A stretch of 64,000 bases of DNA from an uncultured Bacteroidales bacterium (GTDB taxonomy: Bacteria; Bacteroidota; Bacteroidia; Bacteroidales; UBA4417). Each line of letters starts with the position of its first letter. Within the stretch, counting starts at the first letter, position 1. The position numbers and the translations under genes are program-made. This document shows positions 5,517 through 24,432 of this stretch, in pieces. The stretch spans positions 3,115-67,114 of the forward strand of contig CAIRMR010000016.1 of NCBI GenBank assembly GCA_903879715.1, written 5' to 3'. The notes beneath the pieces were generated by a model. It ran no database searches. It saw nothing but the letters and a program-made list of their open reading frames with translations, and had not been told where the DNA came from.

Positions 5517-6404
5517 ATGAACGACTCTATCATTCGATATCAGTATAATCCGATGCTTACCGATACGGTAGGATTTTTTGATTATTGCATTCCCCTGACG
5601 AATGAAAACTTTTTTACGAAAGCTGATTCGCTGCAGAAATATTACGATTTCAGCATTTACAATTTTATTACCCCACTTCCGCCTCAGAAGCAATTTCTCC
5701 CTACGACTTCAGTTTTCAAGCCGCATAACCTGGAGCCAAAGCACTCAGGACCAATGGCCATTGACCAACAGGCGACCAACTGGATCACCATTGTATTCCT
5801 TGCCTGCCTATTTATCTTCGCATGGATTCAAGCTACTTATTCGAAACGGCTTAGCCAGATTTTTCGTGCTGTTGCTCAGCCTCATCATGTAAATCAACTG
5901 GAGCGTGAAGGCAATATATTTAAGGAACGAATTGCGCTGGGTCTGGGATTGAATTATTACCTGATAATGTCAATTTTCATTTTTCAGATTATCAGTGCTT
6001 TTGGAGGCCTTCCGACTGATCTAAATAATCTGACCCTCACCGGAATTATTTTCACAGGTCTATTTGCTTATCAGTTACTAAAATCACTGGTAATTCATGG
6101 CACCGGGATTATATTCAACACCAGCGAATACGCCAGGCAATATCAACTTATCTTACTGATTTTCAATTATATGATCGGAATAGTTTTGTTTCCGGTTGTA
6201 GTAATAGCATTTTATTGGAACAATTCGGCTTTCTTAATTGCTGGCATTATAATAATCTCATTATTAATTCTTTATCGGATAATTAGAAGTTTTTTAACTG
6301 GTCAGGACAATAAGAGCTACAATTTGTTTTATTTATTTTTATACCTTTGCACCCTCGAAATTTTACCCTTGTTGCTCATTTATAAAGCCATAAGCAAAAT
6401 GTAG
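5517..6404 (+). CDS. DUF4271 family membrane protein
   Basis: Multiple TM helices, C-terminal FYLFLYLCTLEILP, position upstream of hemD; ATG 5517 follows TAATTTTG at 5497-5504. Confidence 0.85.
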   Translation: MNDSIIRYQYNPMLTDTVGFFDYCIPLTNENFFTKADSLQKYYDFSIYNFITPLPPQKQFLPTTSVFKPHNLEPKHSGPMAIDQQATNWITIVFLACLFIFAWIQATYSKRLSQIFRAVAQPHHVNQLEREGNIFKERIALGLGLNYYLIMSIFIFQIISAFGGLPTDLNNLTLTGIIFTGLFAYQLLKSLVIHGTGIIFNTSEYARQYQLILLIFNYMIGIVLFPVVVIAFYWNNSAFLIAGIIIISLLILYRIIRSFLTGQDNKSYNLFYLFLYLCTLEILPLLLIYKAISKM

Positions 6405-11681: not shown

Positions 11682-12170
11682 ATGACTAAACATACTTTAA
11701 CTGTTGCATACACCGAAGTTTCTCAGCAGTCACAACTTGAAGATCAGGACAGTAATCTACTGAAAGAAGCCTGGGTTGCCTGCGATTCAGCGTATGCACC
11801 TTATTCACAATTCCATGTTGGTGCCGCTGTTCGATTGGCCAATGATTTAATTTTCAAAGGAAACAACCAGGAAAATGCCGCGTATCCTTCGGGAATATGC
11901 GCCGAAAGGGTTGCCGTTTTTTCTGCTTCAGCCACATATCCGGGTGTTGGGATCACAACCATTGCCGTAGTTGCTAAAACTAAAATATTCAACCTTTCAA
12001 ATCCGGTAACCCCTTGCGGCGCTTGCAGGCAGGTGATGGCAGAATATGAAATGTTAGCAGGAAAGCCGATCAGGATCATTCTCCAGGGAAATTCGGAAAA
12101 AATATGGATCATTGACGGAATTGCAAACTTATTGCCGTTGATGTTTCATGGCGGGGATCTGAAGAAGTAG
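11682..12170 (+). CDS. cdd: Cytidine deaminase
   Basis: AYAPYSQFHVGAA, NQENAAYPSGICAER, PCGACRQ. Confidence 0.95.
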   Translation: MTKHTLTVAYTEVSQQSQLEDQDSNLLKEAWVACDSAYAPYSQFHVGAAVRLANDLIFKGNNQENAAYPSGICAERVAVFSASATYPGVGITTIAVVAKTKIFNLSNPVTPCGACRQVMAEYEMLAGKPIRIILQGNSEKIWIIDGIANLLPLMFHGGDLKK

Positions 12171-12293
12171 ATGGTTATTGGTTATTGATTAAAAGTTAAT
12201 AGTTAAATGGGGAAATGGTCCTTTGGTATCGTTATTCACTACTTGTCCGTAAATGGATAGAACCTGGAACCGAGACCCAAATCAAATATTTTA

Positions 12294-12337
12294 CCCTGAG
12301 CGACGGCGGCTGAGCGAAGCCGAAGCCAGCCGAAGGG
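12294..12337 (+). repeat. Nested REP-like palindrome
   Basis: ccctgagcga[cggcggctgagcgaagccgaagcca]gccgaaggg; related copy on the opposite strand at 54724-54770. Confidence 0.7.
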
Positions 12338-12396
12338 CAAGGGCACAAATCCCAGATCATATTCTTAAATCAGATCAAACAGAATCGCAAAATCCT

Positions 12397-13263
12397 ATGA
12401 AAAATTACCTACTTCTCAGTATTGCAATAATATCTTTACTCTCAATGAAAACTGACAAACCAGCTTACCGGCTGTTTGATCAGAACGGTAAAAATGCTTC
12501 CTACAAAGATTTGCTAAAAGAAGCATCAGAAGCTGATATTGTATTCTTTGGTGAATTACACGATAACCCGGTTTGCCATTGGCTTGAATATGAACTTACA
12601 GCAGATTTATTTGCCGCAAGAGGTAAAAACCTGGTTTTAGGAGCCGAAATGTTCGAATCCGACAACCAACTTATTGTTAATGAATACCTTGACGGTCTTA
12701 TAAAAGAGAAAGATTTTGAATCGCAGGCCCGTCTTTGGCCAAATTACAAAACCGATTACAAACGACTCCTTAATTTTGCCCGCGACAGCAGCCTGGCCTT
12801 TATTGCCACCAATATTCCGCGTCGTTATGCTGCTATGGTAAATAAGGGTGGATTTGACGCATTGAACACTCTTGATCAAAATGCGTACCCGTTTATAGCG
12901 CCTTTGCCTCTTAAGTATGATTCAACACTTTCCTGTTATGCCGATATGTATAAAATGATGGGCGATGCGCCAACTCATGCCACCCGGAATATTGCCTGTG
13001 CCCAGAATAGTAAGGACGCAACCATGGCATATTTCATTTTAAGGAATTTTGTTAAAGGCAATACTTTTCTTCATTTTAACGGTAGTTACCACAGCGACAA
13101 ATTCCAAAGTATTTTATGGCATCTGAAGCAGGCTGATCCTACACTTAAAATCGTAACAATTTCATCTGTTGAACAGGCGGATTTGGATGACCTAAAAAAA
13201 GAATCGGAAGGATTGGCGAATTTCATTATTGCAATCCCGGAAACGATGTCGAAAAGCCAGTAG
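12397..13263 (+). CDS. ChaN family (TIKI/EreA-like fold) exported protein
   Basis: DIVFFGELHDNP..HWLE, LGAEMFE, WPNYKTDY, ATNIPRRYA, KDATMA, HFNGSYHS; ATG 12397 starts a signal peptide. Confidence 0.88.
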   Translation: MKNYLLLSIAIISLLSMKTDKPAYRLFDQNGKNASYKDLLKEASEADIVFFGELHDNPVCHWLEYELTADLFAARGKNLVLGAEMFESDNQLIVNEYLDGLIKEKDFESQARLWPNYKTDYKRLLNFARDSSLAFIATNIPRRYAAMVNKGGFDALNTLDQNAYPFIAPLPLKYDSTLSCYADMYKMMGDAPTHATRNIACAQNSKDATMAYFILRNFVKGNTFLHFNGSYHSDKFQSILWHLKQADPTLKIVTISSVEQADLDDLKKESEGLANFIIAIPETMSKSQ

Positions 13264-13269
13264 CCAGAA

Positions 13270-13665
13270 CTATACAAATGTATACAAAAGGTTAATAAAG
13301 AAATTCCATACGGTAACTATTCCAATAGCAAACAATTTGGACATATAAAAATTCCGGTTGTGCCTGCTTACCAGGAACCAGATTACCATTGTATTCATTC
13401 CCAGGCCAATAACAGAGAAAAAGAGAAACCTGGAATATTCGATTGCCAGTTCCGGGTTGTTGCTGTGAAAGGTCCACCACCGATTTAAAAAATAGTTGCT
13501 TGTCGCGGCAAAAGTGAATCCTACTGCATTGGCTACATATTTTTGAATTTTGAGTTTTTCCTTACTCAGCCATGTAAATCCAAAATCAACCACCACGCCC
13601 GTAGCTCCAACCGCTCCGAACTTCATGAATTTAATTAAGATATCCTGGGTAAAATACTGCAACAT
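13270..13665 (-). CDS. GtrA family protein
   Basis: FMKFGAVGATGVVVDFG, ANAVGF, NYFLNRWWTF, WNFFINLLYTF; start uncertain. Confidence 0.9.
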   Translation of the reverse strand: MLQYFTQDILIKFMKFGAVGATGVVVDFGFTWLSKEKLKIQKYVANAVGFTFAATSNYFLNRWWTFHSNNPELAIEYSRFLFFSVIGLGMNTMVIWFLVSRHNRNFYMSKLFAIGIVTVWNFFINLLYTFV

Positions 13666-13793
13666 AGGCTGCGAAGATACATAAAAATACTCTCGGGATA
13701 AATTTAGCGACAAATTCCAATTATCCCACAGTTTGAGGTTTCTAATCTCAAAATCTAGCTCTAAGTCAAGGTTAAGAAAACAGATCAGAGAAA

Positions 13794-15578
13794 TCAGAAC
13801 TGAACAATCAATATCTGCTTTACTTCGTTCCTGATAATTTCGACACTTGCCACCTGTCCGGGTTTCAGTTTGCCGAGCCTGGCCATATAATCGTAAATAT
13901 TTGTAACAGGTTGACCTTCGATAGAAATAACCCGATCTCCTTTAATGATACCAGCTTTATCGGCCGGGCCGCCTTTACGCACGCCGTCAACTCTGAGCCC
14001 GTTATTATCATTGGATACCATATCAGGCACAATACCAAGCGTAACTTTCATATTCCTTCCGTAACGTGTGGCTTGTTTAGCGCCGGCTTCACGAAATGTC
14101 AACCTGTTTCCAGCTGAGACTTTTAATGCCAGGTCGTAAACCATATCCAAAACAGCAACTTCACCGGTATAATTGATTTTGTCGGCATCGTCGGCAGGTG
14201 TATGATAATCTTCGTGAGCGCCTGTGGTAAAATAAAATACAGGAATATTTTCACTGTAAAATGATGCATGATCGGAAGGACCATACCCATCAGCAGAATG
14301 AGTGATCTTATAAGGCCGGTTAACTTCCAGAATTTTAAGTAGTGAATCGGTTTCGACAGAAGTTCCTGTTCCGCCAATGCTGATGGTATTGCTTTCGGGA
14401 TTAAGCCTGCCTATCATATCCATATTGATCATGGCATTTACTCTTTTCAGATCAACAGGAGGTTTGTTAACAAATTCCTTTGATCCGAGTAATCCCATTT
14501 CTTCTCCTGTAAATGTAACAAAAATAAAACTACGCTTCAGTTTTGAATGGTTGGCCGAGAGTTTCTGAGCCAGCTCAATAACACCTGCAGTACCCGAAGC
14601 ATTATCATCTGCGCCATTATGCACAGCAAGTGTTTCAGGAGCACGTGAGCCGCTTCCTTCACCACCCATCCCAAGGTGATCGAAGTGAGCGCCTACGATA
14701 ACATATTCATTTTTAAGTACAGGATCAGTCCCTTCGAGAAAGCCTACAACATTCTGTGCTGTAACCCTTGTTTTTACAACATCAGCAGTGGCAGTTACCG
14801 TTGGTTCGAGGTAAATTGAAACCGGTTTATGATTTCCTTTTATTTCAGTTTCGAGTGAAGCAACAGAATAATTCATCGAAGAAAGCAGCTTATCGGCTAA
14901 TGCCCTTGTGATGCTGAACACAGGAATCCCTGCGTCGGAAGGTGATTTATCATACTGCATGTGCATAATGATATCAGATTTATCGATATCGGAGGGTGAA
15001 ATTAGCAATACTCCGGCGGCTCCTTTATCTTTAGCGGTGAGCACTTTGCTCCTTTCCTGTTCATAAGGGAGGAAAGCGCTGTTCGCTTTATCAGGTTCAG
15101 GGTCTCCACGGAGGATAACTGCCCATTTCCCTTTTACATCGATGCCTTTATAATCGCTCCATTTGAGAGAATCGAGATCCAGGTCAAATCCATATCCGGC
15201 AAAAACAACCGCAGCGGTATGAGTTGCCGATGATGAAAAGGATAGCGGTGTAAAATCAAGCCCTTGTTGCGCAGTGAAACCATCAAATGAAATTGAATTA
15301 TTGCTTCCAGCCTTTACATCTGCAACTATTTCGAACTTTTGAAACCCATTATCGAACATCAGCCTGAGACCAGCTTTTTTGAAACAATCACGTATATAAT
15401 CAGCTGTAACAGCATCTTCAGGAGTACCCGGTTTACGCCCTTTCAACGAGTCGGAAGCAAGGAAACCAATCTGTTTTTGCAGATCAGCAGTGGTTATTTC
15501 AGGGTTATACTGCGCAAATAATGCCTTTGAAGAAAATAGGATTACTAAAAGAAGTAATGAGCTGAGAATTCTTTTCAT
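13794..15578 (-). CDS. M28 family aminopeptidase with PA and PDZ domains
   Basis: LASDSLKGR, GAHFDHLG, NGADDNASG, GEEMGLLGS, NMDMIGRL, SDHASF, DYHTP; C-terminal PDZ. Confidence 0.93.
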   Translation of the reverse strand: MKRILSSLLLLVILFSSKALFAQYNPEITTADLQKQIGFLASDSLKGRKPGTPEDAVTADYIRDCFKKAGLRLMFDNGFQKFEIVADVKAGSNNSISFDGFTAQQGLDFTPLSFSSSATHTAAVVFAGYGFDLDLDSLKWSDYKGIDVKGKWAVILRGDPEPDKANSAFLPYEQERSKVLTAKDKGAAGVLLISPSDIDKSDIIMHMQYDKSPSDAGIPVFSITRALADKLLSSMNYSVASLETEIKGNHKPVSIYLEPTVTATADVVKTRVTAQNVVGFLEGTDPVLKNEYVIVGAHFDHLGMGGEGSGSRAPETLAVHNGADDNASGTAGVIELAQKLSANHSKLKRSFIFVTFTGEEMGLLGSKEFVNKPPVDLKRVNAMINMDMIGRLNPESNTISIGGTGTSVETDSLLKILEVNRPYKITHSADGYGPSDHASFYSENIPVFYFTTGAHEDYHTPADDADKINYTGEVAVLDMVYDLALKVSAGNRLTFREAGAKQATRYGRNMKVTLGIVPDMVSNDNNGLRVDGVRKGGPADKAGIIKGDRVISIEGQPVTNIYDYMARLGKLKPGQVASVEIIRNEVKQILIVQF

Positions 15579-15770
15579 TGTTGTTGTTTATGTTTTAAAA
15601 AAAGCAAACTTATTCAATTTTTATCAATTACAAAACTGATTTAAATTGCTTTAACTGGATTCTGGTTCAATTAATGTTTTAGCTCATTTAAGTTCAGATT
15701 CAAGTAAATCCTTTTTTGTTGCAGACTCGGTAATTGATCCTGAACAAACTAAATATTTACGTATTCTTTG

Positions 15771-16784
15771 CTATAACTTCTGATATTCAAAAGAAGGATA
15801 ACCCTTTTTAAGCCTGTTGTTCAGCAATTTATAAAAATCCTTAAAACGCAGCTTGTAAAGAAACCCTTTGGTATCGCGGATTACATAAATGATCTTTGAA
15901 TTTACTTTATACGTGCCATTATCAAAATTGTATATTTTCCAATCATAACCAATCTTATCAGCCTGTTTAGAGAAATTCATGGATTGTGCCTTTTCGAAGG
16001 TAATATCATCGTAGGCCGATAAAGAATCTACAGCGACTTCAACAGAAAATGGATTCAATAATACTCCCGTAACAAGGTAGGGATAAGGATCGCCGGCATC
16101 CGTATATAGTAATGTGGTATATTGGCTGAATAATAAATCCCAACTGTAATTTACAGGTTCTGAAAAGATTGTTGAAGGATTACTGATTGAGAAAAGCACA
16201 TGATTTACATCACTCAGTTTTACAATTGAGAAAGACTGTTGATTTGAGCCGTCATAGGCAGCCATCCGGAAATAATAAATGCCATGGCTGAGGCTATCTA
16301 CAACCAACTGCTTGAATCCCCGTGGATTGCCTTTCGTATCAACCCCGCGATCAATCAGTAAAACCCGGTTTATGCCAAGAGTGTCAGTACCATTAGCGGT
16401 ATACCATTTGCCAATCGCCACTGAATCGGAACTACCGTCGGAAGGATTAAACAACCATTTAGCTCCTGTGGTATCCGAAGGCATACCAAAAACCTGTCCG
16501 CTCAGGTAAGCAGATTTCATAAAACAACTGGTATTCAATATTACCCGCCATCCTTCAGGTGAGCTTTCAAAACCCAGGTCCCAGGTGCTCCTGATATTTG
16601 AAGCTGACACGCTACTATCGTGCAGGTTATAATAAATCTGGTACTGGTAGGAATCAGTTAAAGCAACTGTATCAGTAATATAATTGCCAGGTACATGGGG
16701 AATAATCAATTCGTCCTCTTTAAAACAGGAAGAAATCAGCACTGTCATTGACACTATCAGTAAGCTGAGAAGTAGTCGTATCAT
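15771..16784 (-). CDS. HmuY family lipoprotein (heme-binding-like)
   Basis: Lipobox ISSC; WDLGF and WDLLF repeats, IGYDWK, YVIRDTKG.LYKLRFKDFY, GYPSFEYQ; overlaps the receptor stop. Confidence 0.8.
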   Translation of the reverse strand: MIRLLLSLLIVSMTVLISSCFKEDELIIPHVPGNYITDTVALTDSYQYQIYYNLHDSSVSASNIRSTWDLGFESSPEGWRVILNTSCFMKSAYLSGQVFGMPSDTTGAKWLFNPSDGSSDSVAIGKWYTANGTDTLGINRVLLIDRGVDTKGNPRGFKQLVVDSLSHGIYYFRMAAYDGSNQQSFSIVKLSDVNHVLFSISNPSTIFSEPVNYSWDLLFSQYTTLLYTDAGDPYPYLVTGVLLNPFSVEVAVDSLSAYDDITFEKAQSMNFSKQADKIGYDWKIYNFDNGTYKVNSKIIYVIRDTKGFLYKLRFKDFYKLLNNRLKKGYPSFEYQKL

Positions 16785-19030
16785 TATAATTTCTTAAAAT
16801 TATAGGTAAGTTTAACAAAAGCTGTACGTCCCCAGGCTACTCTTGAGGCTCCGTCACCACCTCCGCTATGAGCACCACTGTTAACTATTGAAGCACTAAC
16901 ATCTCTGACATCCAGGAGATTTTTACCTCCGGCAGTTACTGAAAACATATTTTGCATAAAGCTTTTCATTACACTGATGTCGAGGTTGGAATAACCGTCA
17001 ACATATTGATTGTCGAAAGTGCCATCGGGAGTTAATAACGGGAAACGACCGGTGTATTTATAATTTGCAGTTACCGAAGCATTTAACTTTTCAAGGCTAT
17101 AGGTAAGCATTGCGTTTAAATCAGTACTGTAGTGGAATTGTTTATCGGTTTGAGCTGCGGTATTATCCGGGAATTTACGGCCAACATGTGAAATACCGGC
17201 CTTTAAAGTCAGCTTCGGATAATAACTGACAGTAGCATTTGCCTGGATACCCTGCGAAATAAACTTTGAAATATTCCCATAGGTGTATGTTGTAATATCA
17301 TTGCCGACCTGGAACAACCATATCATATTGTCAACATAATTATAAAACAATCCAAGGTCTGTACTCAGGTAAGCCTTTTTCGTTTCCCGGTTATAACTGA
17401 AGTTCAGGTTAACATTATGCGATGATTCAGCCTTCAGGTCTGGATTGCCGTGCAGATTATGATTGATATCCACAAAATCGAGGTAAAGCTCCTTAATGGA
17501 TGGTGACCTGAATCCACGTGCATAGGTTGCTCTTACAGAAGTGTTTTCAGTAGCTCCATACTTTACATTTAAAGAATAAACTAAAGGAGCTCTGTATTTG
17601 GTGTTATAAGTATAACGTGCACCGGGTTGTATGGTGATTTTCTTTATCGGATCGTATTTCATACTTACAAAACCGGCATAATCGCCAATTTGCTGTGAGC
17701 TACCATAAATGCGCTGCCCTGAACTTGTTTCCAGGTTACCATCAAAACCAGCCTGGTAGTTTAATTTCTGTTCCGGATAATTACGGTTGTACCAGGCCCT
17801 TAGCAGATAACTTCCCACAAAAGTTGTATCACCACCCGCCAGTTGTTTTTCAGGAATGGTTAGATCATTATAATATACCTCCCGGTTACGGTTGTAGGAG
17901 GAATAAGCTCCTACCAGGCTGATCTGCCTTTTCGTGGAGATTGTATATGAAGATTCAACTTTTGAAGTCTGGCGTATAGTATGGTATGAGTTATCGATTG
18001 CCGTTTCGAAATATGGGGTGCGCAAATCGCCTTTATCCTGGATGGTTTCGTCGAAATACTGAATGGATAATTTTAACCTGGTTTTCGTTCCGGAATACAG
18101 GTAATAAGCATCTCCGTTATACTGCAACCGTGGTTTCCATTGCATCGATCGTAAGGTATCATTGGTAGTATAACCAGCAAAGAAATTCCGGGAAAGGTCG
18201 AGTGAAAAGTTGTGATTCTTTTTTCGTACCGCACTTCCTGCGTTAAAATTGTAGACTCCGACAGATTCCCAATATGCATTGGCAAATGCAGAAAGTGATG
18301 AACTTTTATTTTCCTTTGTGATAATATTAACCACACCTGCAATGGCATTGCTTCCATAAATAACTGACATCGGACCTTCAATGATTTCAACATGGTCAAC
18401 ATTATAAAGGTTCAACTGGTTAAGATCAATATTCCCGTTTATGCGGCCAACCACAGGTACTCCGTCGACAAGGAATTTAACATTTTCGCCGGAAAGTCCC
18501 TGGAGACTTAAACTTGTACCCAGAACTCCGCCTTGTGAAATCCGCATATTACTTTCAGAGCTCAGAAGGTCAGTGAGATTGGTAGCGGCTTTACGTTCAA
18601 TTTGCCGGCTATTAATAACGTTGATTTTATAGATTGATTTATCTGCTTTCTCGGGTTGAAACTGACCTGTTATTACGACCTCACTCATATTTAAAACAGC
18701 CGGTATCAGGAATAAAGTTGTTGTAATACCAGGTTGAATAGTATCAACCAAGGTCTCATAGCCAACAAACGAGATAGTTATTTTAGCCACTTCCTTTAAT
18801 TCATTGGGAACAGTACCCTTCATATCAGAAACATATTGTTTTTTAGCTGCCGTCTTTAACCCTTCGACGGTGACACTTGCGTAAGGCACTGGTTCTTTGG
18901 ATTTGGCATCAATAATTTTGACGGTGGCCTGCTGACCGAAGATCTGACCTCCGAGCAGCAGCAACACCATCAACCCTGATAATCTGGAAAACAAACTTTT
19001 CAACATTACTTTCATTCTATTATTACGCAT
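16784..19030 (-). CDS. TonB-dependent receptor (HmuR/CirA-like)
   Basis: N-terminal CarboxypepD-like domain, EVVITG, plug LVDGVPV...IEIIEGPMSVIYGSNAIAGVVNIIT, ARGFRSPSIKELY, GNPDLKAE, NLLD. Confidence 0.93.
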   Translation of the reverse strand: MRNNRMKVMLKSLFSRLSGLMVLLLLGGQIFGQQATVKIIDAKSKEPVPYASVTVEGLKTAAKKQYVSDMKGTVPNELKEVAKITISFVGYETLVDTIQPGITTTLFLIPAVLNMSEVVITGQFQPEKADKSIYKINVINSRQIERKAATNLTDLLSSESNMRISQGGVLGTSLSLQGLSGENVKFLVDGVPVVGRINGNIDLNQLNLYNVDHVEIIEGPMSVIYGSNAIAGVVNIITKENKSSSLSAFANAYWESVGVYNFNAGSAVRKKNHNFSLDLSRNFFAGYTTNDTLRSMQWKPRLQYNGDAYYLYSGTKTRLKLSIQYFDETIQDKGDLRTPYFETAIDNSYHTIRQTSKVESSYTISTKRQISLVGAYSSYNRNREVYYNDLTIPEKQLAGGDTTFVGSYLLRAWYNRNYPEQKLNYQAGFDGNLETSSGQRIYGSSQQIGDYAGFVSMKYDPIKKITIQPGARYTYNTKYRAPLVYSLNVKYGATENTSVRATYARGFRSPSIKELYLDFVDINHNLHGNPDLKAESSHNVNLNFSYNRETKKAYLSTDLGLFYNYVDNMIWLFQVGNDITTYTYGNISKFISQGIQANATVSYYPKLTLKAGISHVGRKFPDNTAAQTDKQFHYSTDLNAMLTYSLEKLNASVTANYKYTGRFPLLTPDGTFDNQYVDGYSNLDISVMKSFMQNMFSVTAGGKNLLDVRDVSASIVNSGAHSGGGDGASRVAWGRTAFVKLTYNFKKL

Positions 19031-19282
19031 TAGTAAACACCTATGTTGTTTGAGAAATTAATGCGGTAAACAGCCGGCCTTAGAAAATCTTTTGGCTGGC
19101 AGCTTTACCATTAGCCCTACTAATCTATTAAACAAAACATCCAACATTGAGTATTTACATATCTTGAGATGAGCGGATTTGCTATTGGGTATAAAGTTTT
19201 TAATGTCAAACCACCAACCGGAGATATTCATTCCGGCCGGCCGTATTTCCATCAATACTATACATAAACAAAACCCTCAACA

Positions 19283-20557
19283 TTAATTATTTACTACTAC
19301 TTTACGGGCAATAACATTCCCACCCGACTGAATTTTAACCATGTAGATTCCTGAAGGAAGTTCTGAAACAGGAAGCTGTAATGAAGCAAGTTCTTCCGAT
19401 TGCATATCGAACCGTTGACTTAAAACGATATGGCCTGAAATATTGATTACCGAAACCAATGCAAACGTTGCTTTCCCTGGATTGATCACAAGATTCATTA
19501 CATCCCTTACAGGATTAGGATAAACTGTAGCATTGAAACCTGATTTTACAACTTCGTTAACACCCGTGAATGAGTTCATTCCTGTTTCGAAAACAATGCG
19601 GCCTGTTGAACTTCCATCAAAATTGGTGAATACAAGTTTATAGATTTTACCTGCTCTGTCCTGAATAAAATAAGCCGTTGTATTGGTAACTGTGTATGTA
19701 AAAGTTTCATTGCTGAAAGGTTTCCAATCCCAGCCTATTGGTGAACGTGTCGAATCCATTACCTGTGCTTCGAGCATCAGGAAATCAGGTGCTACAAGCT
19801 CAAATTCCTTTACCTTAACTTTGTAATTACTGAGAACACCTGTTACCGGGTATTGCGTTCCATCGGGGTAAGTGTATACATATTTTGTAAAAAGGATATC
19901 CCAATTTGCGGCAGGAACTGGTTCAAAATCAATTATTACATTTGTAGCGAGTGAATAACCAACAAAGTTCTTGGTAGCATACGGATTACAATCAAGCTGA
20001 ATAGTATTCTCTCCGGTATTGTCAAGTTTTGCGAAACGAAATTCGAAAATGTTATCGGTAGAATATTTTTCCATAATCCACAGTTTACGCAGGCTTCCGT
20101 CACGTAATTTGATGACGAACAATGAATCACCTACAACATTGTGTGTGAAGCCATTATAAATACCCCATCCATAATCCGGATAAGCTTTTTGATTTTGGCA
20201 AAAAGCCCCTGTTTCCCAATCTGTTGTGGAATTAACCATTTTTTTCCAATTTTTAATTCCACTGGTATCAACTGTAGCCCATCCATTAGTATCAGATTTC
20301 GGATAGGTATACAATTCAACAGCGGAGCCATCATTGGTTAGAATGCTTGCGCTCCTTCTGTTTGCACGGAAGGCTACATCCCATAAAGAACGGTTAACAT
20401 TACCCATTTCCCCTGCAGACATGCTGTAGTAAACTTCATTAACGTAACCTTTACCCATTAAAACGGTGTTTGTTACAGTTGTTTGACCCTTTGCAGTAAA
20501 AATGCCTGCAAAAGTGATTGCTAGTAATGCAATAAGAGTGTAAAATTTAGTTTTCAT
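19283..20557 (-). CDS. T9SS type A sorting domain protein with HmuY-like domains
   Basis: Signal peptide from ATG 20557; WDVAF/WDILFTKY, YPVTGVL, IGWDWK, IYKLVF shared with the downstream HmuY; C-terminal VYPNPV...LPSGIYMVKI...RKVVV. Confidence 0.85.
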   Translation of the reverse strand: MKTKFYTLIALLAITFAGIFTAKGQTTVTNTVLMGKGYVNEVYYSMSAGEMGNVNRSLWDVAFRANRRSASILTNDGSAVELYTYPKSDTNGWATVDTSGIKNWKKMVNSTTDWETGAFCQNQKAYPDYGWGIYNGFTHNVVGDSLFVIKLRDGSLRKLWIMEKYSTDNIFEFRFAKLDNTGENTIQLDCNPYATKNFVGYSLATNVIIDFEPVPAANWDILFTKYVYTYPDGTQYPVTGVLSNYKVKVKEFELVAPDFLMLEAQVMDSTRSPIGWDWKPFSNETFTYTVTNTTAYFIQDRAGKIYKLVFTNFDGSSTGRIVFETGMNSFTGVNEVVKSGFNATVYPNPVRDVMNLVINPGKATFALVSVINISGHIVLSQRFDMQSEELASLQLPVSELPSGIYMVKIQSGGNVIARKVVVNN

Positions 20558-20808
20558 TTTATTTTTTTTTAAATTGGGGGAAGATGGCTGCCTTAACAGC
20601 GAACCGGGAAATTTCATGATTCAATAAAATATTTATTGAGAGAATAACCAATTATGACTTTCTTTAATATGAATTTGATTTTTGATTGAAATCAAGTTGA
20701 AAAATACTCATCATCTATGAGGGCATGTAATAACCTGAATAGAATTGAAAAACAGGTAGCTGACGCACAAAACCGGTTTATGCGCAGCAAAATACTGATG
20801 ATGAGAAA

Positions 20809-21180
20809 TTAAGCGGAAGGAGGACCTCTGAAAGAAAAGGCCTGGATTCCCTGCAGAAGAACAGGGGCATCTGATGGAAGGAGATAGAATGAAACTATCT
20901 CATAATAGGGAATATCTAAAATTTGTTGACCAGAAGTTGTAAAAACAAAATGCAACCCTGAATCGAAGGTCTTTGAATTACTGTCATTTTTAACAAATGA
21001 AGCAGTATCTTCTTCTTTGTAGCGTGTAGAGGAACATGCAACAGGAATGAGCTGTTTACCCCAGATATGATGCTGATGAAAATTAACCAGGTTACCCATG
21101 TAAATCCAAACCACTGCAACAGCCCATCCTAAAAGGATAGCTTTGCGAAGTACAGATTTGGTTGATTGAAGGTAACCCAT
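20809..21180 (-). CDS. Small membrane-targeted leader ORF ending in RGPP (candidate arrest peptide)
   Basis: Basic N-terminus, hydrophobic segment, FHQHH, single Cys, C-terminal FSFRGPPSA*; same strand and upstream of the uptake operon. Confidence 0.7.
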   Translation of the reverse strand: MGYLQSTKSVLRKAILLGWAVAVVWIYMGNLVNFHQHHIWGKQLIPVACSSTRYKEEDTASFVKNDSNSKTFDSGLHFVFTTSGQQILDIPYYEIVSFYLLPSDAPVLLQGIQAFSFRGPPSA

Positions 21181-21473
21181 AATATATTCCTGAATTTGAG
21201 TGCAAAGTTGTATATTTTTTGAAAGGAAAAAACATTCCCCAACTTTTTTTTTCGTTAAATATCAAAAAAAAACTCAATAAGTGACATATATCAATCTATT
21301 TGCATCTTAATACTTGTTTTGATATTGACCCAATACCCCCAGGTGAATAAATACTGATACAACTGAAGATGTGGTTTAGATAAGCGCATTAATTAATCAC
21401 CCTATTATTCAGATAGTTATAAAACAATTAACTAAATGCCTGACCCGTATCCCTGATTTTACAGTATTCGGAT

Positions 21474-21517
21474 AAAAAAAAAGCCATCAGTTGATTTTTA
21501 CTAATCAATTGATGGCT
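21474..21517 (-). terminator. Intrinsic terminator after flavodoxin
   Basis: agccatcagttgatt...aatcaattgatggct stem; plus-strand A tract gives a U tail on the minus strand. Confidence 0.8.
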
Positions 21518-21556
21518 AATATGCATTAAAATCTGACTAAATCAATTTAAGCAGGA

Positions 21557-22063
21557 CTAAATATTGGCTTCCGCCCTGATTTGTTTTACCCAATCGCTAA
21601 TTCGTTTGTCAGTAAACTCTTTCTGTGTATCATCATCAATGGCAAGACCGACAAATTTACCTTCTTTTTCGGCTGTTGAATAATAGAAATTATATCCCCG
21701 GGTTGATGTATAACCAATAACGTTTTCTTTATGCGGTAAACGGCAGAATATAGTCCCCATCCCATCAACAAAGCTTTCGGGATAAATTTTCTGATCCCCC
21801 AGGCCAAATAAAGCAACTTTCTTGTCGGCCAGGTCCGATTCAACCAATTTGTCGATAAACCGTTCCCAATCCGAATGCATCTCACCAATTCCCCAGGCCG
21901 CTGTTCCTAAAATCAGGAAATCATATTTCTCCACATCCTGTCTGGCGGCACTGGACACATTGTGCACCGTAGCCTGATCACCAAACAGCTCCTGAATTTT
22001 GCGGGCTACCTTTGCTGTGCTCCCGTTATCTTTACCACCAAAAAAAATTCCTATCTGCGACAT
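21557..22063 (-). CDS. Flavodoxin (long chain)
   Basis: IGIFFG...GSTAKVA, LILGTAAWGIGE, VALFGLGDQ..YPESFVDGM, FVGLAIDDD. Confidence 0.93.
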   Translation of the reverse strand: MSQIGIFFGGKDNGSTAKVARKIQELFGDQATVHNVSSAARQDVEKYDFLILGTAAWGIGEMHSDWERFIDKLVESDLADKKVALFGLGDQKIYPESFVDGMGTIFCRLPHKENVIGYTSTRGYNFYYSTAEKEGKFVGLAIDDDTQKEFTDKRISDWVKQIRAEANI

Positions 22064-22199
22064 ATTCTGTATTTATTTCTTAATTTTTTATACAATATGC
22101 AAATCTAACGAAAATCAAACTTACGTGATAATTTGCTGCTATATATTTTCTGACTAATTTTGAGGCTTCAGCTAAATGCCCTGAAATGAAATCCGATTT

Positions 22200-23162
22200 A
22201 TGAAACAGCTTTACTTCAATTTTGTTTTACCTCCTTTATTAATTTCCCTGTTACTCTGGAGTGTTATTGTTTGGGAAACGGGCGTAAGTATAAGCAGCGC
22301 TGTGGTGTTCGTGCTTGTAACAGCTCTTGTCTTACTAAATATGAGAACTGTAAATCAAATAAAAAATTTACGGAATAACCTTCTGAATATTGAAAACGGA
22401 TCATTAATTAAAATTGACACCAGAGGAAAAGGAGTTTTTGCTGAACTGAATCAAACTCTCAGCAATATTTTTCAGCGGATCAGGAAACAGGAAGATGAAT
22501 TGCAACGCGAAAAGCTTCGCAGGCTCCGTTCTGTAATTGATGGGCAGGACCAGGAACGCAACCGCCTGTCTCGTGAATTGCATGATGGTATTGGTCAATC
22601 GCTTATTGCCGTTAAGCTGCAGCTCGAAAATGCTGAAACGCAGAATTATTCGATGATGAGGGCCGGAATTGACTCCGCCAAAAACATGATTGACATCACG
22701 ATTGAAGAAGTGCGAAGAGTTTGCAATGCACTATTACCGGCAGCCCTGAACGAGTTCGGAATTGTTTCGACTTTGAGAGCGCTTAGCTCCGAACTGGGGT
22801 CTTTGGCTGGGTTTAAAGCTGTTTTTGAAAATGAAGGTTCACTGGACAGAATGTCTAAAAAGTCGCAGATCTATATTTACCGTATTGCACAGGAAGCACT
22901 GAACAACATCACAAAACACGCAAGAGCCACTCAGGTATTGCTAAAACTCAGCCGGATAAATAATATAGTTACTTTAGAAGTATCTGACAACGGAAAAGGT
23001 TTTATATTTGACCCGGTTTGTTTTGCCCAGCGAAATGGTTTGCAGAATATGCGCGAAAGAACGAATTTGCTGGACGGCGAATTCGTAGTGAACAGTCTGC
23101 CAAGTAATGGCACAACAATAAAGGTTTCAATACCTTACGACATTGAAAATGGAAAAGATTAA
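22200..23162 (+). CDS. Sensor histidine kinase, HisKA_3 (NarQ-like)
   Basis: Two N-terminal TMs; ERNRLSRELHDGIGQSL; YRIAQEALNNITKHA; DNGKGF; GLQNMRER. Confidence 0.93.
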   Translation: MKQLYFNFVLPPLLISLLLWSVIVWETGVSISSAVVFVLVTALVLLNMRTVNQIKNLRNNLLNIENGSLIKIDTRGKGVFAELNQTLSNIFQRIRKQEDELQREKLRRLRSVIDGQDQERNRLSRELHDGIGQSLIAVKLQLENAETQNYSMMRAGIDSAKNMIDITIEEVRRVCNALLPAALNEFGIVSTLRALSSELGSLAGFKAVFENEGSLDRMSKKSQIYIYRIAQEALNNITKHARATQVLLKLSRINNIVTLEVSDNGKGFIFDPVCFAQRNGLQNMRERTNLLDGEFVVNSLPSNGTTIKVSIPYDIENGKD

Positions 23163-23808
23163 ATTGATTTTGGTGGATGACCATCAACTGGTACGAACAG
23201 GAATTGCCAATTTACTGGCAGGAGAAACGGGTTTCGAAATAATAGGTGAAGCTGCCGATGCGAAGGATTTATTTGAATTACTCAGGAAATCGCAACCCGA
23301 CATTACCGTGCTTGACATTGCATTACCAGGAATGTCGGGCATAGAAATTACAAAGAAGCTTCACAACGATTATCCTGGGATCCGCATCCTGATTCTTTCG
23401 ATGCACACTTCCGAAGAATTTATTTTTAACGCAATTAATTCCGGGGCAAGAGGATATTTGCCTAAAAACACTTCACGGAAAGAGTTAATAGAAGCGATTT
23501 ATGCTATTCATCGGGGGGAAGAGTTTTTTGCCGAAAGCATTTCGAATGTAATTCTGAAGAGTTATATCAAAAAGGCAAAATCTGACTCACAGGAAGACGA
23601 AAACAATGAAAATCTGCTGTCAAAACGTGAGATAGAAGTCCTGAAGCTTTTTGCCGAAGGCATGACTAACCAGGAGATTGCCGATAAACTATTTATCAGT
23701 ATCCGTACGGTTGAGTCACATAAAAATCATATTATGGCCAGGCTTGAGCTTAAAACAACCGTTGACCTGGTAAAATTCGCCATCAGGAATAATATAGTTT
23801 TGCTATAA
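23149..23808 (+). CDS. NarL/LuxR family response regulator
   Basis: LVDDHQLVR, LDIALPGMSG, LSKREIEVLKL...IADKLFISIRTVESHK. Confidence 0.95.
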   Translation: MEKIKLILVDDHQLVRTGIANLLAGETGFEIIGEAADAKDLFELLRKSQPDITVLDIALPGMSGIEITKKLHNDYPGIRILILSMHTSEEFIFNAINSGARGYLPKNTSRKELIEAIYAIHRGEEFFAESISNVILKSYIKKAKSDSQEDENNENLLSKREIEVLKLFAEGMTNQEIADKLFISIRTVESHKNHIMARLELKTTVDLVKFAIRNNIVLL

Positions 23809-23840
23809 AGCCATCAGGAATAATATAGTTTTGCTATAAA
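23779..23840. repeat. Perfect 31-bp tandem duplication spanning the regulator stop codon
   Basis: gccatcaggaataatatagttttgctataaa at 23779-23809 and 23810-23840. Confidence 0.95.
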
Positions 23841-23922
23841 ACAGACATCTTGATAAATGAAAGAATGTCAGATGTGGAATCATAATGCACTAACCTTATT
23901 CGCGAATCTAACCTCAAACAAA

Positions 23923-24432
23923 ATGAAAAACCTGTTATTTCTTGCTCTTATACTCCTTCCGGCTATGACCTTCGCCCAAATGAATCAAAAGGCTCTGGAT
24001 GAGAAGAAAGGGAATGAAATGCTTATCGGGTATTGCAACCGCGATGGATTTGCAAGCGTGAACAGTAATTTTGATTCGGCCTTCAAGGCTGAATACCAGA
24101 TTTACAAAGCGGATGAAGTTACCATGAAACAGCTTACAGGAAAGTTGAATGACATTGAAGTGACTTTAGTAATGGCAAGCTGGTGCGGCGACAGCAAGGA
24201 ATGGGTTCCAAGGTTTTATAAAATTATGGATAACCTGGACTTCCCTTACAAAAACCTTACCCTGATCTGCGTTGACCGATCAAAAAAAGCGCCTGGAACC
24301 AATGTAGATGCTTTGAAAATAGAACTGGTACCAACCTTTATTTTTTATCGCAATAAAACTGAACTTGGTCGTATTGTTGAGGTGCCGGCGGATTTGATGG
24401 AGAAAGAAATTCTGAATGTTTTATCAAAATAG
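23923..24432 (+). CDS. Exported thioredoxin-fold protein (CxxS)
   Basis: Signal peptide; WCGDS, VPTFIF, ELGRIVE. Confidence 0.85.
   Translation: MKNLLFLALILLPAMTFAQMNQKALDEKKGNEMLIGYCNRDGFASVNSNFDSAFKAEYQIYKADEVTMKQLTGKLNDIEVTLVMASWCGDSKEWVPRFYKIMDNLDFPYKNLTLICVDRSKKAPGTNVDALKIELVPTFIFYRNKTELGRIVEVPADLMEKEILNVLSK

Follow-up and report, generated by a model that had tools for sequence, protein, structure and literature searches.

A membrane-anchored upstream reading frame ending in RGPP is a candidate arrest-peptide leader of a HmuY–TonB receptor operon in Bacteroidales

A 64,000-nucleotide stretch of the genome of an uncultured Bacteroidales bacterium (assembly GCA_903879715.1, contig CAIRMR010000016.1; hereafter the window) carries, at 20809–21180 on its minus strand, an upstream open reading frame (uORF) of 123 codons that precedes genes for a HmuY-domain protein, a TonB-dependent receptor (TBDR) and a second HmuY-domain protein (HmuY2). 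The encoded small membrane peptide ends in Arg-Gly-Pro-Pro (RGPP) and two further residues. We propose that it is probably an arrest peptide of the RAPP class, i.e., that the uORF acts in cis as the leader of the HmuY–TBDR–HmuY2 operon, for which the gene content suggests a role in tetrapyrrole uptake. The peptide combines the traits of this class, a C-terminal R-A/G-P-P, an N-terminal transmembrane (TM) segment and a same-strand position upstream of other genes. The evidence on the leader is comparative throughout, and related genomes are not independent samples.

We compared the window copy of the uORF with those of 46 fetched genome loci. All but one of these 47 copies end in R[GA]PP-x-x-stop, with Gly in 42 and Ala in four and with exactly two tail codons; the lone exception is a truncated gene (L044). 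Among the copies all six codons are used for the Arg, all four at each Pro position, and all three stops. Because these codons vary synonymously, we conclude that selection acts on the amino acids rather than on the RNA sequence. Among the best 150 of 168 cluster representatives from a wider profile search, 141 have RAPP (88) or RGPP (53) at the end, with two further residues in 116, three in 21, four in three and seven in one of them. The remaining nine are apparently truncated or frameshifted, have a long tail after RGPP, or read RGSP. Leu precedes the motif Arg in 105 of 121 representatives, and the last two residues vary (VA, LA, AV, TA, LS, QA and others). [quoted passage not shown]

RAPP and RGPP are, according to a recent survey, the two strongest arrest cores; they are EF-P-resistant and excluded from proteomes except near the C-termini of small exported proteins, which sit upstream of TBDR genes, among others (PMC12992588). 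This avoidance is reproduced in the present 6.07-Mb genome. With the 3,324 ORFs of at least 200 residues (1.58 million residues) taken as a stand-in for the proteome, RGPP and RAPP both occurred zero times, as compared with 6.2 and 6.1 expected occurrences from composition, or 2.6 and 3.8 from the counts of GPP and APP. At a C-terminus, i.e., followed by at most six residues, R[AG]PP was found in three of 31,952 ORFs of at least 40 residues: the uORF, a 109-residue TM peptide upstream of a TonB receptor, and one seemingly spurious ORF. Alternation of Gly and Ala within the motif and its absence from larger ORFs are what an arrest motif predicts.

The other conserved element lies at the N-terminus, which is basic (three Lys/Arg within the first 13 residues) and leads into a single hydrophobic segment, with a 19-residue Kyte–Doolittle mean that peaks at 1.95 for the segment starting at residue 14. 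From this signal anchor we infer an N-in/C-out orientation. Conservation in the family is bipartite, i.e., the TM helix and a juxtamembrane block at one end and an L/F-R-G/A-P-P-x-x terminus at the other, and the approximately 70 residues between them vary freely in alignments. G29, N33, F34, H35, I39, W40, G41, K42, L44 and P46 show no change among three clades, and in a set of 70 diverse members the invariant positions are H35, R118, P120 and P121 only. The spacing between H35 and the motif Arg is 74–86 residues in 117 of 121 representatives, despite the variable linker sequence. AlphaFold2, run on a 31-sequence alignment, gave a confident helix only for residues 3–36 (block predicted local distance difference test score, pLDDT, 86–91) and no secondary structure past residue 36; 10-residue block means of pLDDT were 64 for residues 31–40 and 40–58 from residue 41 onward, and the overall model had a mean pLDDT of 58.2 and a predicted template-modelling score of 0.26. 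A TM or export signal, a variable linker and a conserved distance from H35 to the Arg fit an arrest peptide. We rejected a lipoprotein or signal-peptidase reading of the sequence VAC/S, because its Cys is not conserved and lies 17 residues past the hydrophobic core.

A word-indexed search returned 153 homologous proteins at E ≤ 0.01, most of exactly 123 residues, and all of those with a source name were annotated as hypothetical. A profile from 16 members of three clades, searched against 1.84 billion representatives, yielded 168 clusters at 50% identity. Pfam contained no family matching the window protein at E ≤ 1 and matched none of 70 relatives at E ≤ 0.01, nor any of a set of 16, searches of NCBIfam and with a PDB sequence profile gave no match for the window protein or its relatives, and the ESM Atlas gave unnamed clusters only, plus DUF6769 as the nearest named cluster. 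The family has a patchy distribution: an order-wide sample of 301 genomes contained it in 22 (16 of 208 genera), and a phylum-wide sample of 401 genomes in one, the window's own. Judged from these comparisons, the uORF is a real, conserved and unannotated gene family.

The initial annotation, made from the window alone, had recognized this gene as a possible metal- or heme-sensing arrest regulator with His ligands, and its gene model stands: a 123-residue ORF with a basic N-terminus, one hydrophobic segment and RGPP two codons before the stop, Pro codons at 20818–20823, and a distance of about 250 nt to the first operon gene (251 nt to the shared HmuY ATG at 20557). Its comparison of RGPP with RAPP-like arrest motifs agrees with the family, in which RGPP and RAPP interchange as expected. 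Of the pattern TM-HxHH...RGPP that it anticipated upstream of orthologous operons, the ORF, the TM segment, one His and R[GA]PP recur across many Bacteroidales families, but HxHH does not, with HQNR, HMNH, HLYR and HLHK as variants. The ligand site that it had suggested, a His cluster (NFHQHH, residues 33–38) and the only Cys (Cys49), has to be abandoned: H35 alone is invariant, and homologs have Tyr, Trp or Ala at the position of Cys49. As a whole, that interpretation is partly supported.

The association of the uORF with its operon is old and spans different operon designs. Including 16 loci from divergent families of the order, 62 loci were fetched (L064 duplicates L037), and in 59 of them the uORF heads a same-strand TonB-receptor operon. 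HmuY and then TBDR genes lie downstream on the same strand in 33 of the first 46 loci, usually continued by HmuY2 and a gene for an M28 peptidase with a PDZ domain (M28-PDZ) or a GtrA-like protein. The window operon, with a HmuY-domain protein beside a TBDR, is likewise of the HmuY/HmuR type; its longest HmuY ORF starts at 20617, and the start common to homologs is the ATG at 20557. A distant uORF clade (10 of 46 loci, 31–38% identity) directly precedes a TBDR gene. Nine of these ten loci continue with a major facilitator superfamily (MFS) gene and one for protoporphyrinogen oxidase (PPO, 256.6 bits), and eight of the nine have HemN (480.9 bits) between, both scores being over their cut-offs; as exceptions, L041 has no HemN, and in L036 the contig ends after the TBDR. 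The other three of the 46 comprise one locus at a contig edge, one truncated, and one before a beta-carbonic anhydrase gene. All 16 loci from divergent families have a uORF ending in R[AG]PP plus two or three residues and a downstream TBDR operon, organized as HmuY–TBDR–HmuY2 (13), TBDR–HmuY2 (1), TBDR (1) or TBDR–MFS–HemN–PPO (1). Judging by the domain names and by the sister clade with its HemN/PPO operons, the operon cargo is probably a tetrapyrrole, and the uORF–TBDR–MFS–HemN–PPO arrangement looks like a porphyrin(ogen) salvage operon.

Table 1. Positions of the uORF, its elements and the surrounding features in the window
Feature	Position	Strand	Basis or remark
uORF, 123 residues; small membrane peptide of a new family, ending in R[GA]PP + 2 residues	20809–21180	−	
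Single hydrophobic (signal-anchor) segment, codons 14–32, three Lys/Arg before it	21085–21141	−	hydropathy and AlphaFold2 helix
Conserved juxtamembrane block N-F-H-Q-x-x-I-W-G-K-x-L-I-P, codons 33–47	21040–21084	−	alignments
H35 codon, the only invariant His	21076–21078	−	
R118-G119-P120-P121 codons, predicted arrest site	20818–20829	−	R118 20827–20829, G119 20824–20826, P120 20821–20823, P121 20818–20820; sequence and conservation, geometry by analogy with ApdA/ApdP (PMC10951233, part of text)
Ser and Ala codons and TAA stop, fixed short tail after PP	20809–20817	−	TAA 20809–20811
Spacer of 251 nt, uORF stop to conserved HmuY start	20558–20808	−	no Rfam match, no conserved promoter box
Conserved RNA hairpin	20753–20798	−	inner stem 20759–20788; outer stem 20794–20798 paired with 20753–20758
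Conserved CAACTTTG box, likely Bacteroidota −7 promoter element	21203–21210	−	30 nt upstream of uORF ATG
Conserved 14-bp palindrome TTGAyATATrTCAm, candidate operator	21281–21294	−	alignment by eye
First operon gene, HmuY-domain protein with type IX secretion system (T9SS) C-terminal sorting domain	19283–20557	−	PF14064 33.6 bits, PF18962 52.7 bits
TonB-dependent receptor	16784–19030	−	PF07715 and PF00593
Second HmuY-domain protein, 337 residues	15771–16784	−	PF14064 54.1 bits; syntenic in other loci
M28 peptidase with PA and PDZ domains; fourth gene of the operon in many loci, though not in all	13794–15578	−	
Flavodoxin gene directly upstream; conserved promoter region between it and the uORF	21557–22063	−	upstream in 27 loci

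The two HmuY-domain genes of this operon are the only ones in the genome. They flank the receptor gene, with the T9SS sorting domain only on the first product, and share about 27% identity in homologs. The best NCBIfam matches of the receptor, BtuB-type (116 bits) and hemin-type (95 bits), are far below the cut-offs. The TBDR–MFS–HemN–PPO operon joins an outer-membrane receptor, an inner-membrane transporter and two late heme-synthesis enzymes; with its uORF (L033–L042, L064) it adjoins genes for GluRS and a YbaK-like protein.

The strong conservation of the TM-proximal block, with ten residues invariant across three clades, would also be expected of a stable small inner-membrane protein that acts in trans in heme uptake or signalling, e.g., as a transport accessory or anchor or as a partner of the adjacent two-component system. 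In that case R[GA]PP-x-x would serve as a tag for recognition or degradation, for instance by the PDZ domain of the M28 peptidase; PDZ domains bind C-termini, and the M28-PDZ gene is common in the operon. This gene is, however, missing from the HmuY-type loci L007, L011 and L013 and from the TBDR–MFS–HemN–PPO operons, and the last two residues, those that a PDZ domain would read, vary. Moreover, about 85 residues of the peptide are sequence-variable and predicted to be unstructured, and the exact Gly/Ala alternation in R-x-P-P as well as the absence of the motif from larger ORFs are predictions of an arrest motif. We therefore regard a function in trans as unlikely.

A box CA[AC][CT]TTTG at −27 to −31 from the uORF start is present in 31 of 31 main-clade loci and resembles TAnnTTTG, which we take to be the Bacteroidota −7 consensus. 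Of the 31 spacers between uORF and operon in the window and 30 main-clade loci, 26 are 135–155 nt long and five, the window's among them, 223–259 nt. We looked there for a downstream promoter, which by the initial annotation would uncouple the operon from the uORF, and found a TAnnTTTG box in only one of 31 spacers. At the level of motifs, the operon hence most likely uses the promoter before the uORF. About 100 nt upstream of the uORF start, the palindrome of Table 1 is kept in all 31 main-clade loci; as a genome-wide operator it was rejected, with 12 sites at up to one mismatch as compared with 16 for the reversed control.

Downstream of the uORF stop, a hairpin begins after 10–16 nt in 31 of 31 single-sequence folds. 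On a sequence-only alignment, 81.3% of its cells can pair (91.5% in the inner helix), as compared with 29–64% in slid controls, and its covariation score is 0.303, compared with at most 0.162; none of 500 shuffles, which ignore phylogeny, reached the observed values. RNAalifold on a plain MAFFT alignment recovered the inner stem only, with a weak energy of −4.87 kcal/mol. The outer stem is 67% paired on the MAFFT alignment and is seen mainly in single-sequence folds, its sequence differing by locus. In the distant clade the spacer has two hairpins, unrelated in sequence. We rejected the hairpin as an intrinsic terminator, since there were no consensus sites in 20400–22300 and U-richness after the hairpin was inconsistent across homologs. 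A long-range stem between about 20797–20805 and 20706–20714 was discarded as a conserved element because it occurs only in the window and its closest long-spacer relatives. A riboswitch or other known RNA was likewise dismissed, as an Rfam search of 12000–24000 gave one chance-level match (C0719, E 0.25) inside the receptor gene. The last approximately 150 nt of the uORF are C-rich and G-poor (C 0.27–0.34, G 0.10–0.15), and the genome encodes Rho (636 bits). The Rho gene is a 708-residue open frame (contig C40:69011–71071, minus strand) matched to a 415-position model, which implies a large extension or insertion.

These features can be compared with CruR (Bp2923, DUF2946), a Bordetella pertussis uORF that controls the TonB-dependent transporter BfrG. 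According to the sections of that paper used here, a ribosome arrested on RAPP excludes Rho, and ligand-triggered release leads to termination before the receptor gene, with a conserved spacing between sensor and RAPP (PMC9426467). As far as these sections describe it, CruR resembles the window uORF in being a small first operon gene, in having an N-in/C-out signal for export and a body with little structure, and in placing a sensor at conserved distance from the C-terminal RAPP (three residues from the end in CruR, two in the window uORF). Both also have an intergenic region that is long and structured, a uORF-internal C>G stretch, Rho at their disposal and a TonB receptor downstream. The analogy to CruR drawn in the initial annotation is thus apt. 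The two are not homologous in sequence, however; none of 70 uORF family members matches the Pfam DUF2946 profile, and in place of the CXXC of CruR the window uORF has the TM-proximal block with one His, so that it is not a DUF2946 protein. The sensor spacing is about 85 residues compared with 45 in CruR, and the membrane segment itself is conserved, whereas the signal peptide of CruR is dispensable. Furthermore, the cargo of CruR is copper, while the window operon, in Bacteroidota, probably serves a tetrapyrrole and usually has HmuY between uORF and receptor.

On this model, transcription would begin some 30 nt before the uORF, at the conserved promoter. The signal anchor (residues 14–32) would take the ribosome to the membrane, where the H35 block would become exposed at the outer face. 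At arrest, H35 would be about 85 residues from the peptidyl-transferase centre, which should place its block well outside the ribosome and, given an N-in/C-out anchor, at the outer face of the inner membrane. The stalled ribosome would cover the last codons and the stop, just 5' of the hairpin and 3' of the C-rich stretch, and might, as in CruR, shield the transcript from Rho or from some other activity that terminates or degrades it, which would allow the operon to be expressed. A signal sensed by the exported H35 block would then alter the pulling force and thereby the duration of arrest; upon release, the ribosome would terminate two codons later and operon expression would fall. The first three of these steps draw on sequence and published mechanism, and those from the protected transcript onward we infer. 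The mRNAs of Bacteroidota are largely without Shine–Dalgarno control. As to the sign of regulation, release on ligand, by analogy with CruR, would repress uptake when cargo is plentiful; a prolonged stall on ligand, as in CutF, would instead give substrate induction.

Since tetrapyrroles are the common theme of the two operon types, heme or a porphyrin is the most likely signal. The lone His where the TM helix ends, within an aromatic-rich block, seems more in keeping with an axial ligand of heme than with chelation of a metal. That the peptide is the first tetrapyrrole-sensing arrest peptide, in which H35 and the aromatic residues ligate periplasmic heme or porphyrin and set arrest duration, is a tentative and rather doubtful extension of the arrest-leader proposal.

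A metal could take the place of heme, i.e., the uORF would be an arrest leader whose signal is iron or another metal bound by His. Flavodoxin is typical of iron-limitation regulons, its gene lies directly upstream in the 27 loci mentioned, and the window copy reads HQHH. Families of CutF-like proteins whose motifs contain His alone are linked to Ni/Co genes, according to the available part of their description (PMC9973294). The family as a whole, however, conserves one His and no Cys, and one residue alone cannot chelate a free metal ion. In addition, the HmuY domains, HemN and PPO point to tetrapyrroles, and we consider a metal signal quite unlikely. An even less probable account, very unlikely in our view, has the pause serving only the peptide's own targeting and insertion, or a general monitor of Sec/YidC capacity with neither ligand sensing nor specific operon control, as might be suggested by its signal anchor and by ApcA, ApdA, ApdP, SecM, VemP and MifM, which monitor the export machinery in the parts of the literature consulted (PMC7897499, PMC10987492), but no sec or yidC gene follows the uORF in any of 62 loci, which have two tetrapyrrole-tied TonB-receptor architectures instead, and specific residues, beyond hydrophobicity, are conserved at the membrane boundary.

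Several observations weigh against a cis-acting arrest leader with a Rho-dependent output. Starting 10–16 nt past the stop, the hairpin lies out of range for a ribosome stalled on P120 and is thus too far from the arrest site for a simple switch in which the ribosome melts it. The consensus scan of 20400–22300 found no terminator-like site, and the C>G bias in the uORF is modest within an AT-rich region. The conservation of the N-terminal block exceeds what a plain export signal needs and would fit a protein with its own function, and one invariant His is a weak ligand site. As to the motif, xGPP tetrapeptides are depleted in general (KGPP 0 compared with 11.3 expected, AGPP 2 compared with 11.7), so that the absence of RGPP alone is not specific. 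Two representatives (P0254, P0258) end in I-R-G-S-P plus two residues; either natural variation of the arrest core or decay of these copies may account for this. In one locus (L046), a uORF ending in RAPP plus two residues (5956–6291, plus strand) precedes the beta-carbonic anhydrase gene rather than a receptor gene, the only such exception among the 62 loci. Finally, our literature search gave no arrest test on a Bacteroidota ribosome.

The class to which we assign the uORF is already published. A 2025 survey of 52,895 genomes described RAPP/RGPP uORFs before TonB receptors and found the class to be general in Gram-negatives; in it, uORFs were classed by the annotation of the next gene, and only Streptomyces peptides and CruR were tested (PMC12992588). 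Like the members of that class as described there, the window uORF has fewer than 300 residues, carries one of the two motifs (RGPP) close to its C-terminus as well as a localisation signal, and lies upstream of a TonB receptor gene. The clade with TBDR as first gene would fall into this survey, and the HmuY-first majority might be filed elsewhere; the text parts examined are without the NFHQxxIWGKxLIP block, HmuY or heme. A literature search of limited coverage found no arrest peptide or uORF linked to HmuY or heme uptake. By its sequence, the window uORF is a new family within the published class, CruR/CutF-like in its presumed working and non-homologous.

CutF of Rhodobacter capsulatus gives its name to the CutF-like proteins, exported peptides ending in PP that are common in Bacteroidota (19% come from this phylum) and for which TonB-like genes are the second commonest neighbour, according to the part of a 2023 study consulted (PMC9973294). 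The window uORF conforms to the rules given there: it is shorter than 150 residues, has PP among its last 15, carries an export signal and is followed on its strand by a gene no more than 1,000 nt away. Here too, co-translational export would bring the sensor motif out beyond the membrane. It differs in having no Cys-rich or His-rich motif. The mechanism described for CutF in these pages, unfolding of a stem-loop at the ribosome-binding site, does not obviously transfer, because the hairpin leaves the next start, 135–259 nt from the uORF stop, uncovered. ApdA, ApdP, ApcA and SecM are alike in the C-terminal R-A/G-P-P core and the export signal; in the published portions used, they precede sec or yidC genes and monitor export (PMC10951233, PMC7897499), whereas the window uORF precedes a nutrient-uptake operon and has a conserved sensor block. 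With neither sec nor yidC among its downstream genes, it does not count as a Sec/YidC monitor.

By language-model features, the nearest named cluster is Pfam DUF6769 (PF20558; score 0.95, rank 19). We rejected identity with this family, since its profile matches none of 70 uORF family members at E ≤ 0.01, and keep it as a look-alike; in this genome nothing scored above its 27-bit cut-off (best 16.9 bits, at a different place). One DUF6769 member (L071 1483–1917, plus strand, genome G031) has 144 residues, very rich in His and Cys, with an N-terminal TM segment and the end G-L-R-A-P-P plus two residues. The same-strand ORF downstream of it encodes a protein that is His-rich at its N-terminus, differs from a TonB receptor and is, as a guess, a metal-efflux adaptor. 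DUF6769 may be a metal-sensing arrest-peptide family of Bacteroidota. Because this member also ends in L-R-A-P-P plus two residues, Bacteroidota appear to hold several unrelated families with this C-terminal module.

Heme acquisition of the HmuY/HmuR type is central to Bacteroidota, many of which are unable to make heme, and its regulation has been described mainly as transcriptional. If our proposal is true, the range of RAPP-type arrest control, which includes the export machinery and copper, would widen to tetrapyrrole uptake and to the Bacteroidota. Were the peptide also a tetrapyrrole sensor, expression of heme capture by HmuY/TBDR, or of porphyrin salvage by TBDR–MFS–HemN–PPO, would track tetrapyrrole supply, as a protein-based, co-translational counterpart of a riboswitch. 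With 123 codons and two invariant elements about 85 residues apart, the uORF is a compact test case that bears on how an external part of a nascent chain tells the peptidyl-transferase centre to resume. The comparison also defines an unannotated family, of the 168 clusters given above, that annotation pipelines call "hypothetical protein".

Divergently oriented genes for a histidine kinase and a LuxR-type response regulator (22200–23808, plus strand) keep their position beside the flavodoxin–uORF–HmuY cluster. The response regulator is unusually conserved, 87–100% identical in main-clade loci, compared with 50–84% for HmuY, and 71–74% identical in the distant L031 and L032. This pair could be the transcriptional layer of the same system.

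The 109-residue ORF with a C-terminal R[AG]PP lies outside the window in the same genome (contig C56:42205–42534, minus strand). It has an N-terminal TM segment, HxH, a conserved Cys-Pro and the end L-L-R-A-P-P plus two residues, and is directly upstream of a gene for an 809-residue TBDR, and ferritin and NifX-like genes lie in its neighbourhood. A search with it gave seven proteins, one of them identical to the query, and T-S-C-L-L-R-A-P-P is invariant in the seven aligned. As a homolog of the uORF family it was rejected, as hhalign aligned only the last eight residues (probability 4.6%). It is probably another arrest-peptide leader. Both credible R[AG]PP-ending ORFs in this genome precede TonB receptors, which suggests a simple rule for finding such leaders.

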